Assembly (NCBI GenBank): GCA_951406725.2
Contig: OX597817.1
Location: 126,046,001 to 126,110,000, forward strand
Origin: Octopus vulgaris
Lineage: Eukaryota
Direction: 5' to 3'
Length of the DNA: 64,000 bases
Below, piece after piece: positions 5,765-11,535 of the stretch. Position numbers and translations under genes: made by a program. The notes beneath the pieces were generated by a model. It did no database searches, was not told the DNA's origin, and saw only the letters and a list, made by a program, of their open reading frames with translations. How positions within the stretch are numbered: the stretch's first letter is position 1; each line of letters starts with the position of its first letter.

Positions 5765-5772
<8 letters not shown>

Positions 5773-6367
5773 TCAATATAGGGTGGCAAAAAATTTCGTA
5801 GAATTTATTTGCCACCAGCGGCCTAGTGGGAAAAAATTAAATAGTCATAGACCATTTATAAGTTCAACATCACAATCAAGGAATGGCCATAATAGGCCAT
5901 TCACCCACTAGAAATAACAGCCAAAGCTTCAACCGCAAAATAACATCAATTCCGCAAACCAGGAGAAAATTAAAAAAAACATTTATCCTGTAATTTCTTA
6001 TACGATGCACCGTTTCATCTATTGTTTAATGGTAAACTAACCTGATTAAATTAAATCAAGCCAATCTTCCATAGGCCGATAGATTCGTCAGTAAGAAACA
6101 GCCAAGATCCGAGCAGATATTATCACGAGGCATCTCTATCCCTGCCTCGGCAATATCTGACCTAAAATTTTCAAATCATCGCACTCGCGCCAAATTTATC
6201 GGCAGCAAATATAAGCCGCCGATTCCATTACGGAATTAACCACAAAATTCATAATTAATCAATATAGGGTGGCAAAAAATTTCGTAGAATTTATTTGCCA
6301 CCAGCGGCCTAGTGGGAAAATATTAAATAGTCATAGACCATTTATAAGTTCAACATCACAATCAAGG

Positions 6368-6369
<2 letters not shown>
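5765..6369 (-). mobile_element. HHR-bearing retrozyme/pLTR-like element: 486-nt unit plus 119-nt terminal direct repeat, between (TA)n tracts
   Basis: 5765-5883 is nearly identical to 6251-6369 (offset 486). Internal hammerhead. (TA)n on both sides. No ORF of note. Confidence 0.85.
5994..6098 (-). ncRNA. Type I hammerhead ribozyme
   Basis: Minus strand: TTTCTTA-CTGACGA-ATCTAT[56 nt]ATAGAT-GAAA-CGGTGCATCG-TA^TAAGAAA. 7-bp helix I, 6-bp helix II, near-palindromic helix III, GUA cleavage triplet. Confidence 0.9.
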
Positions 6370-6418
<49 letters not shown>

Positions 6419-6421
<3 letters not shown>

Positions 6422-7218
6422 GTGGTTAATCTATAGAGTTAATCTATTTTTTCGTTATTTTTCATTTGTCCTGCCCGATTACATTCATGGCGTGTTGAAT
6501 TAATGCTTGAGAACAATTCTTTAGTGGTGGATTCCCTTTGCGGATATATTTCTAGCGTTAGAGTGACCACATGTGGTCTCTCTCTTATTACTTGTATTAA
6601 TAATTTTTACTGTATCCCAGTTTTTTCGCTAGGCCACTTGGTGTTTTAAATTGATGTTATTAATTAATATTCAATTTTTTTCACCCTTATTGTGATTTTA
6701 ATTCTAAATTAATATGTTCTCAAACTGGCAGTAAATTACTGGGGTAGTATTTACATCCGGTATTTTGAACGTGCCAGGAGTGAGGATATTTGAACGTAAC
6801 TGCAAATGTAATCGGTTGTGCCGTTCGCCTTTGCACGGTTTCGTATGGATTTTGGCGTTCGGTTCAGCAAATTATATTTTTGATATACTCTACTGAGGAT
6901 TCGAAAATGATTAGGTAAACTTACTCAATCTATTAACGATGAAACAATTGTATAGATTTAATCTATTTTTTCGTTATTTTTCATTTGTCCTGCCCGATTA
7001 CATTCTTGGCGTGTTGAATTAATGCTTGAGAACAATTCTTTAGTGGTGGATTCCCTTTGCGGATCTATTTCTAGCGTTAGATTGACCACATGTGGTCTCT
7101 CTCTTATTACTTGTATTAATAATTTTTACTCTATCCCATTCTTTTTCGCTAGGCCTCTTGGTGTTTTAAATTGATGTTATTAATTAATATTCAATTTTTT
7201 TCACCCTTATCGTGATTT

Positions 7219-7220
<2 letters not shown>
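6419..7220 (+). mobile_element. HHR-bearing retrozyme/pLTR-like element: ~519-nt unit plus ~266-nt direct repeat, between (TA)n tracts
   Basis: 6434-6699 is nearly identical to 6953-7219. The HHR lies immediately before the second copy, and the first copy starts at the cleavage site. Confidence 0.85.
6887..6958 (+). ncRNA. Type I hammerhead ribozyme
   Basis: ACTCTA-CTGAGGA-TTCG[33 nt]CGAT-GAAA-CAATTG-TA^TAGATT. The other repeat copy reads TAGAGT, a perfect helix I partner. Helix III is the palindrome CAATTG. The first helix II pair is a T-T mismatch. Confidence 0.8.
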
Positions 7221-7263
<43 letters not shown>

Positions 7264-7271
<8 letters not shown>

Positions 7272-8116: not shown

Positions 8117-8329
8117 CAAAATCACGATAAGCGTGAAAAAGTTGTTTTATGTCCTTAACATGTCCCTGTTACCAAAGACTGTATATATATATGTAATGTA
8201 GCAATTTGCAACAACCAATAATTAACGCAACCAAACTTCCACATGTTACTTTTGACAATCTTTTTCCAAAGAGTGAAACCGGTAAAGTAAATAAACATCT
8301 TTTAAATTGCATTTTCAAACCTTCTTTCG

Positions 8330-9154: not shown

Positions 9155-9365
9155 GCAGCGAGCTGGCAGAATCGTTAGCTCGCTGGACGAAATGCATTGC
9201 AGTATTTCACTCATCGCTACGTCCTGAGTTCAAATCCTGCCGAGGTCGACCTTCCCTTTCATCCTTTCGGGGTCGATAAATTACGTACTAGTGCAACACT
9301 GGGGTCGATGTAATAGAATAGTCCCCTCCCCACAAACTTCAAGTCTTGTGCCTTTAATAGTAAAT
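9155..9365 (+). mobile_element. tRNA-derived SINE, family B (Deu/Nin-like central domain)
   Basis: GCGAGCTGGCAGAATCGTTAG head, GAGTTCAAATCC B-box and CCTTTCATCCTTTCGGGGTCGATAAA domain. Many copies in the window. Confidence 0.85.
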
Positions 9366-9794
9366 GATTATTATTCTATCTTCAATTATATGAAACTTTC
9401 GCTTGGTTTCTCACAGGCTTCCAAAATCTGTGGCTCATTGAAAATTGGGCTTATGTACTGATGTATCTCAGGCAACATGATTAGAGTTCCATATCAACCT
9501 GTACAGTAATCCCTCGCCATATCGCTGTTCACCAATCGCGGTTTATTATTTAAGCTTACGCCGATTCTTCTGTGGTGTTTTATAGCAAAGTAAATATACA
9601 CAAATCATGAAAAATAATTAAAAGACTATACAGAACAATACTGTTTCCACTTCGCGGATGTTTGCGTATCGCAAGGGGTTTCGAACGTAACACTAGTGAT
9701 AGTCTAGGGGTTACTGTATATCATTAAGACCATAACGTGTTAAGCCGTATGATCGTGAACTTTTGAAAACATATATTATTTAACCTATTATAGA

Positions 9795-10024
9795 TTTCTT
9801 TACTGCCCACAAGGGGGTAAACACAGAGGGGACAAACAAGGACAGACAAAGGGATTAAGTCGATTACATCGAGCCCAGTGCGTAACTGGTAATTAATTTA
9901 TTGACCCTGAAAGGATGAAAGGCAAAGTCGACCTCGGCGGAATTTGAACTCGGAACGTAACGACACACGAAATACGGCTACGCATTTCGCCCGGCGAGAT
10001 AACGTTTTTGCCAGCTCGCCGCCT
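9795..10024 (-). mobile_element. SINE family B
   Basis: Reverse complement of the family B consensus, full length. Confidence 0.85.
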
Positions 10025-10380
10025 TATTTAATCTATTATAGCTAATTAAGTCCCCTTGTATTCTAATGCCTTTTATTGAAATTTATATTGTTTTTTTTAT
10101 TTACCTGCATTTTGTACTTTGTTGTATTTCATCTTGTTTCAGCTTCTTCGATATCGATCCTAATAACGGTGTTATCCTATTATCTTACTAAACTGAAAAT
10201 AGGGCAGTTATAGAGATATGATCAATACAGCTGCGGGTGACACAGCACGAACAGTTTTATTCAAATGCGTTGTTTATTAAGTACTGGCCGTTGTTTATTT
10301 TTTACCTATCTTACGACGGCGAAGGATATGCATATATATTTGCACACTCACTTGTACAAAGACACACACAAACATACAAA

Positions 10381-10412
<32 letters not shown>

Positions 10413-10660
10413 GATTCATGTGCAAGAGCGAAACTCGCAATATCGATGTTTTGAACATGAGACAAGTTACTCATAACTTCGTTGTTTGAAAATGAGTCAA
10501 CATTATGCGACCCCTCTAATTACGCAAACGTCCGGACCGGCGACTACATATGTGAAATTTACGTATATTGGATATCTGAATTATTAAAACTCAAATCTAT
10601 TACTATTTAATGCAGGTAGTACTAAAACTCTGCTATTAATATATTAAAGCATTAGATAAT

Positions 10661-11535
10661 GCGGCGAGCTAGCGGAGTCGTTAGCACACCGGGTGAAATG
10701 CTTAGCGGTATTTTGTCTGCCGTTATGTTCTAAGTTTAAATTCCGCCGAGGTCGACTTTGCCTTTCATCCTTTCGGGGTCTATAAATTAAGTACCAGTTA
10801 CGCACTGGGGTTGATATAATCGACTTAATCCGTTTGTCTGTCCTTGTTTGTCTTCTCTGTGTTTAGCCCCTTGTAGGCAATAAAAAAATAGGTATTTCGT
10901 CTGCCGCTGCGTTCTGAGTTCAAATTAAGCCGAGGTTGACTTTGCCTTTCACCCTTTCGAAGTCGATAAATTATGTACCAGTTACGCACTGGAGTCGATG
11001 TAATCAACTTAATCCGTTTGTCTCTCCTTGTTTGTCCCATCTACATTTAGCCCCTTGTGGGCAATAAAAAAGTCTTGAAAGGTGGCGGGCTGGCAGAAAC
11101 TTAAGCACGCCGGGCGAAATGCGTAGCCGTATTTCGTCTGCCGCTATGTTCTGAGTTCAAAATCCCCCGACGTCGACTTTGCTTTTCATCCTTTCGGGGT
11201 TGATAAATCAAGTACCGGTTACGCACTGGAGTCGATATAATCGACTTAATCCGTTTTTCTGTCCCTGTTTGTCATCTTTCTGTTTAGCCCCTTGTGTGTA
11301 GTAAGGAAATAGGTATTTCATCTGCCGCTACGTTCTGAGTTCAAATTCTACCGCGGTCGACTTTGCCTTTCATTCCTTCGGAGTCGATAAATTAAGTACC
11401 GGTTGCATACTGGGGTTGATTTTATCGACTAACACCCTCCCCAAAGATTTCGGGCCTTTCTCCGTCTTTAGATTCTGAATTCAAATTCCACCAAGGTCGA
11501 CTTTATCTTTCCTCCTTTTGGGTTCCATAAAATAA
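10661..11535 (+). mobile_element. Head-to-tail cluster of about 5 SINE family B units
   Basis: Full units start at ~10661 and ~11081. Headless units start at ~10891 and ~11312, and a partial unit at ~11460. Confidence 0.85.

Follow-up and report, generated by a model that had tools for sequence, protein, structure and literature searches.

Does a retrozyme repeat begin where its ribozyme is predicted to cut? Insertion ends, twin arms and homogeneous arrays in a hammerhead-bearing family of Octopus vulgaris

In a 64,000-nt stretch of Octopus vulgaris DNA (hereafter the window; contig OX597817.1, positions 126,046,001 to 126,110,000 of the forward strand), a direct repeat starts at the very position where a hammerhead ribozyme is predicted to cut, raising the question of whether the insertion preserves the end of a cleaved RNA. 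Self-comparison of this copy aligned 6432-6702 with 6951-7222 (96.3% identity over 272 nt) at a spacing of 519 nt, or 520 nt past a 1-nt indel. The GTA^ cut predicted after 6952 and the start of the upstream repeat, TAGAGTT at 6434, were both confirmed as an earlier sequence-only reading had placed them. Read along the plus strand, the (TA)n target tract on the 5' side (6370..6418) is followed by a 5' junction stub (6419..6433, consisting of GAAGT, then G, then GTTAATCTA), one cut-to-cut unit (6434..6952, 519 nt, 33.9% GC), a second, 3' round covering unit +1..+267 (6953..7219) and the (TA)n target tract on the 3' side (7221..7266). The second round, taken earlier as 266 nt, is thus about as described, at 267 nt, and stops at the long, or 'tail', 3' site, making the window copy a long-end arm; the family's other fixed 3' end, the short site at unit +164, lies at 7109..7116 (ACTTGTAT), with a tail of ~103 nt between the two sites (7117-7219). 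No target-site duplication is discernible around the copy. The unit (folding z=-4.6) holds no ATG open reading frame of over 50 aa, the longest on the plus strand being 50 aa. The segment represents 1.5 turns of a non-coding element of ~525 nt, truncated at the 5' end and inserted into a (TA)n tract; the earlier unit length of 519 nt holds as the cut-to-cut spacing here and is specific to this copy, other natural cut-to-cut units measuring 521-537 nt and one rearranged unit 557 nt. Copies of the family are dispersed through the genome, and a one-off local duplication is therefore rejected as the source of the repeat.

The predicted type I hammerhead, recognised by motif and covariation, occupies 6887..6958 on the plus strand. 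It comprises stem I (6887-6892/6953-6958, with a G>T change at 6957 in the window copy), the core CTGAGGA as hammerhead box (6893-6899), stem II (6900-6903/6937-6940, with U.U at its base and a long loop), the GAAA box (6941-6944, in GAAAC-AATT-GTA ending at 6952) and a 2-bp stem III formed by the palindromic ACAATTGT, with the predicted cut after 6952. The CUGANGA and GAAA boxes, an NUH triplet, three helices and an open helix I are all present, and the motif has a 2-bp helix III, a 4-bp helix II and a loop of 33-43 nt. Subfamilies among the fetched loci diverge by up to 26%, and a young relative is 59% identical and collinear; this young subfamily bears the most canonical ribozyme, with G-C at the base of stem II and GUC. 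Stem I occurs as CTCTA/TAGAG, CTCCA/TGGGG, TCCTG/CAGGG and TTTGG/CCAAA, and stem II as TCG/CGA, CCG/CGG, CTG/CAG, TTA/TAA and GCTA/TAGC. Across 22 sequences 91.7% of cells were paired, with two-sided changes in 10 of 12 pairs, a level reached by 0 of 500 shuffles and by none of the slid controls (32-47%); these sequences were hand-picked for diversity and are related, so the score does not stand for a probability. The core is invariant across subfamilies except at N7, which together with the covariation indicates selection on the predicted hammerhead fold. In Rfam no hammerhead model reached the gathering score or appeared among the 40 matches to E=10, probably on account of the long loop II. 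The ribozyme fold was absent from the minimum-energy structures of both the 101-nt region and the circular monomer, which are uninformative on the ribozyme.

The start of the window copy is less clean than the predicted cut alone would suggest. The sequence-only reading had seen only a coincident TA upstream of the repeat, which understates the homology: the 9 nt of GTTAATCTA at 6425-6433 are an exact, templated copy of unit +5..+13 and occur only twice in the window, in the stub and at unit +5..+13 itself (the chance of such a match being ~1e-3 given 100 nearby sites). Moreover TAT matches both -2..+1 and +12..+14, and this microhomology renders the breakpoint ambiguous over -2..+2. The GAAGT of the stub resembles, in 4 of 5 letters, a 5-nt aborted inverted short-end arm, a likeness that is suggestive only.

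The sequence-only reading took the cDNA to have ended at a ribozyme-made RNA 5' end. For the window copy this would mean that the reverse transcriptase (RT) reached the ribozyme-cut 5' terminus of a linear multimer, ran off it and then moved back to copy +13..+5 a second time, an explanation that we consider unlikely and that is compatible with copying of a circle as a rare event. It fits the position of the window-copy end and that of a second copy, L016, which ends at -1 at the distal junction. However, all 3 nt of the TAT microhomology come into play only if cDNA synthesis extended past the scissile bond, and (TA)n flanks favour TAT joins. A pile-up of 5' ends at the cut was examined in five ways, none of them positive. 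Of the copies containing unit +8..+30, one in 100 ended at the cut site, the window copy itself (100 of 127 matches listed; the leading-base filter of this survey missed L016). Among arms parsed from 190 loci, none of 30 stops within 3 nt of the proximal junction and 2 of 17, the window copy and L016, stop at the distal junction (P=0.09), falling to 1 of 16 (P=0.38) once the window copy is set aside; 17 arms among those listed read through the distal junction. Overall, the 264 arm 5' ends include 2 that lie no more than 3 nt from a cut site, where 3.0 would be expected.

In the older subfamilies, about 389 junction matches yielded 11 ends inside the cut window, as compared with 4 and 14 in upstream and downstream controls of equal width, all of these tallies being made by eye on filtered lists. 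The matches comprise 368 with G at -3, from a genome-wide pattern, and 21 without it; the latter divide into 11 that stop inside the cut window (2 ambiguously) and 10 that read through with a change. The upstream control had its 4 ends in 9 rows, and the downstream control its 14 in 83 rows, the latter taking in a wider subfamily range and its ends having no measured denominator. The 11 cut-window ends give P=0.06 against the upstream control alone, a point in favour of run-off, and P=0.29 against the mean of the controls. For the young relative, 9 of 78 nearby ends among the matches listed lie at -2..+2 where 12 are expected, and the 78 ends (100 listed of 112 matches, less 19 read-throughs and 3 duplicates) are scattered over 26 positions, with 4 at +1 (P=0.35). 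The 16 young-relative loci that were fetched agree with the by-eye tally, and the end-finding filters catch about 70% of ends. By another pattern, with 2621 junction matches, cut-site ends make up less than 1% of passes in the young subfamily. A few single loci lean towards run-off: both arms of L324 and of L325 end at +1..+4, and L331 (3256-3686) is the single case of a jump from +1 straight to the CTGA of the ribozyme core, skipping stems II and III.

A ribozyme-cut 5' end as a general rule for the family is refuted by the lack of any excess at the cut. The 5' ends of other copies are scattered, and the start of the window copy at the predicted cut is likely a chance or microhomology-guided stop; the coincidence alone is weak evidence and not evidence of cleavage. 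The absent pile-up is in line with findings for an anole element, ribozyme mutants of which still insert in vitro and in which no reads end at the cut (PMC11167929). With regard to an active hammerhead in the retrotransposed RNA, the functional-looking ribozyme stands by covariation, although the 5' end contributes nothing to it; support for activity would come from covariation, seamless junctions and homogeneous multi-turn arrays instead.

If not at the 5' end, regularity is found at the 3' end. Family copies are TA-flanked and 5'-truncated, and their 3' ends fall at two fixed sites, unit +164 and +267, beyond which (TA)n begins. Inverted pairs joined head to head are frequent, and a short end was joined with a long end in 64 of the 69 pairs with two canonical 3' ends (P=2e-14; 30 of the 99 pairs in all were set aside for a non-canonical end). 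The same short-with-long pairing holds in 15/15 and 12/12 inverted pairs of the young relative. In 51 of the 64 pairs the long arm re-copies sequence that the short arm also copied. The earlier view of a retrotransposed, partial-tandem, Penelope-type unit of cut-to-cut length is borne out by these features: a partial tandem pseudo-LTR (pLTR), an inverted 5' copy, a tail at one end and a microsatellite target are all present in the family. No RT and GIY-YIG endonuclease reading frame was found in the element, and hence it is not an autonomous Penelope-like element; judged by its sequence traits, which include the absence of coded protein and a GC content under 50% (33.9%), it is a non-LTR retrozyme, i.e. 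a non-autonomous Penelope-like element. The window copy has a single complete ribozyme where the available text of a 2026 preprint (bioRxiv 10.64898/2026.07.22.740005) calls for two in an 'active' element; other copies of the family have two complete ribozymes.

Comparison with known systems helps to place the family. Metazoan non-LTR retrozymes also carry a type I hammerhead in each low-GC, non-coding tandem unit, and the 2-bp helix III with U.U at the base of helix II recalls the axolotl HHR_Amex2, as far as the accessible parts of Cervera and de la Pena 2020 (PMC7229834) describe them; tandem cDNA copied from a circle and mobilisation by Penelope elements have both been suggested for that group (PMC7229834; bioRxiv 10.64898/2026.07.22.740005). 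The long loop II differs from those retrozymes as described there, and the unit of 519-537 nt lies above the 150-450 bp given in that source and within the 51-972 bp given in the accessible text of the 2026 preprint. Fixed 3' ends, inverted twin arms and within-locus haplotypes, as seen here, do not appear in the accessible descriptions of metazoan retrozymes; for these, RNA circles are shown, whereas the present family is known from genomic DNA. The family also resembles Penelope-like elements, especially the Anolis Poseidon (Frangieh et al. 2024, PMC11167929) and TA-targeting clades (Craig et al. 2021, PMC8557442). Common features are the partial tandem pseudo-LTR, 5' truncation, an inverted 5' copy, a tail at one end only, two internal RT start sites, nicking of both strands in AT-rich DNA, and read ends that do not mark the ribozyme cut site. 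Unlike these elements, the family has no open reading frame, a tail of about 103 nt against their 30-40 and, in a relative, up to 13 turns, and no sequence link to an autonomous element was found. What matters more than the coincidence at the window copy is the footprint at the family level, the element itself belonging to a known kind.

This footprint is clearest in the young relative, whose 2621 junction matches include arrays of up to 13 turns (12.8), often on both arms. Inverted twin arms with multiple turns are seen at L244 (117-5516; G000:C8:39661617-39667016), where the arms have 7.7 and 2.5 turns, and at L274, L275 and L276. Over 30 loci, turns diverge by 0.36% within an arm and 0.38% between arms, as against 2.9% between loci. 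Variants private to a locus, relative to these 30 sampled loci only, are fixed in all turns of both arms at L244, L279 (five variants), L280 and L283, and 22 young loci hold 21 haplotypes, partly nested. Junctions free of indels number 113 of 113 in the young subfamily and 114 of 115 in older ones, counted with a motif that requires intact flanks. Given the low divergence within as compared with between loci, and the seamless junctions, each insertion looks like a clone of one monomer, which fits what copying of a rolling circle would predict.

Homogeneity, unit length and occasional mixing of templates (as at L244) would be explained if an RT that had reached the cut 5' end of a linear monomer jumped onto a cut 3' end, whether of that monomer or of a different one, a route that needs an active ribozyme and no ligated circle. 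Such jumps should often fail or leave a scar at the cut, however, and the one scar in the older junctions and none in the young, together with the lack of excess ends at the cut, make this route very improbable.

Some variants are only partly fixed. At L244, turn 2 carries one such variant on both arms and turns 3 and 5 carry two that are linked; L274 has one in 4 of 13 turns and L278 one in 5 of 6. These need a second template, later exchange or an assembly error. They would also fit templates that were long uncut linear RNAs, with arrays growing and being homogenised at the DNA level by unequal exchange or slippage and the ribozyme acting at another stage or rarely. Tandem duplication of DNA is indeed seen at L155 (1494-3387), a 594-nt local triplication of a rearranged insertion. 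Uncut RNA is moreover the dominant substrate of the anole element in vitro (PMC11167929), and the accessible text of Li, Clavereau and Pollet 2026 (bioRxiv 10.64898/2026.07.22.740005), which links vertebrate retrozymes to Penelope pLTRs, reports that of 9 Xenopus dimers 1 cleaved and 8 did not, and proposes local amplification. Against growth at the DNA level, both inverted arms are multi-turn with private variants common to the two, the longest arrays belong to the youngest subfamily with its most canonical ribozyme, and recurrence at more than one locus is limited to 3 of 52 minority variants, two of them at the same turn. Likewise, no recurring difference between turn 1 and turn 2 was found in 147 arms apart from columns of TA overrun, a result by which a fixed tandem master is also rejected. 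We regard the uncut-template explanation as rather doubtful on balance. At a truncation of ~0.5% per nt, the family's length would not be maintainable from linear templates alone. The signal is weaker in the window's own subfamily, which has at most 2.2 turns and in which, over 147 arms, loci differ from one another by 6.3% and internally by 4.0% and 3.1%; older arrays may have collapsed.

The reading that we favour, and hold to be probably correct, is that of a ~525-nt element with a covarying hammerhead, inserted by Penelope-type RT copying of a ribozyme-made RNA circle, with a start in the window copy set by chance or microhomology. Tandem copies would be transcribed, paired hammerheads would excise the monomer RNA, and the monomer would be ligated into a circle. 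A Penelope RT-endonuclease dimer would then nick both (TA)n strands and prime at two internal sites, +164 and +267, each primer rolling round the circle until it detaches at some random point. Both cDNAs would be joined head to head, or one arm would abort, as may have happened in the window copy. The footprint of the ribozyme would accordingly be sought in the unit length and its renewal rather than in a pile-up of ends. The stronger form, in which the dimer primes one ribozyme-made circle from both nicked target strands, at two fixed internal sites and for up to 13 turns, so that every insertion is a clone of a single monomer, seems to us evenly balanced between right and wrong. If true, it would join internal initiation by Penelope elements to the long-proposed circular intermediate, and would explain why the ribozyme is conserved despite being dispensable for integration. 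Circular intermediates and Penelope mobilisation have been proposed in PMC4209133 and PMC7229834, in the portions accessible. A search by title and abstract opening, with most subscription papers outside its range, returned no report of twin-primed rolling-circle copying being evidenced in a genome. The literature leaves unsettled both the retention of hammerheads by Penelope elements and the agent that moves animal retrozymes (PMC8557442, PMC7229834, PMC11167929), and the young subfamily, whose ribozyme junctions exceed 2,600 and whose arrays look clonal and start sites are strictly paired, is a substrate for testing circle-templated, twin-primed reverse transcription. Four contig sets, presumed to be RNA, include sequence of the family, in some cases spanning the cut site; contigs cannot show ends, strand or circles.

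A search for an autonomous partner, which covered 29 other loci of the L009 RT family, 20 further loci and 30 short-loop ribozyme loci within a non-exhaustive genome search, found none. Fragments of Penelope-type RT and GIY-YIG adjoin family copies at L005 (2227-3294), L009 (2685-3302) and L027 (2423-2962), with Pfam RVT_1 at the cut-off and GIY-YIG below it; we take these endonucleases to be Neptune-like. The RT family at L009 has 1947 candidates in the genome and a 3' end different from that of the present family, and was rejected as partner since its 29 other loci have no similarity to the unit and, by eye, appear to carry a different small ribozyme. The C31 repeats were likewise rejected, being segmental duplicates without an open reading frame. 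At L081 (1020-6540), long pol-like open reading frames, presumably Gypsy-like, separate the arms of a twin insertion.

Other elements of related interest are found in the window and beyond. A second, unrelated hammerhead element lies on the minus strand at 5765-6369, head to head with the window copy across the (TA)n tract; it has a 486-nt unit, a 119-nt direct repeat and a predicted type I ribozyme (6091-6001) with an 8-bp stem I and a 6-bp stem II, and it starts at unit +118 rather than at its cut. Other hammerhead families are abundant too; these, with 763 matches in G000 (e.g. L297/L298 and L314/L315), share the palindromic stem III, have a short stem II and often form opposite-strand pairs 75-140 nt apart. 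The segment 7253-7459, with TA-flanked inverted arms of 99 nt (96% complementary) forming a perfect hairpin with sub-threshold Rfam microRNA hits, is likely another small twin insertion. On the minus strand at 8117-8140, a 24-nt piece past a long (TA)n matches the long 3' end of the window copy in 23 of 24 positions, including two letters that distinguish its 3' round from its 5' round, and is perhaps another family with the same terminal motif. Finally, 9158-11535 contains five to six copies, in both orientations, of a dispersed repeat of 160-300 nt that we assume to be SINE-like.
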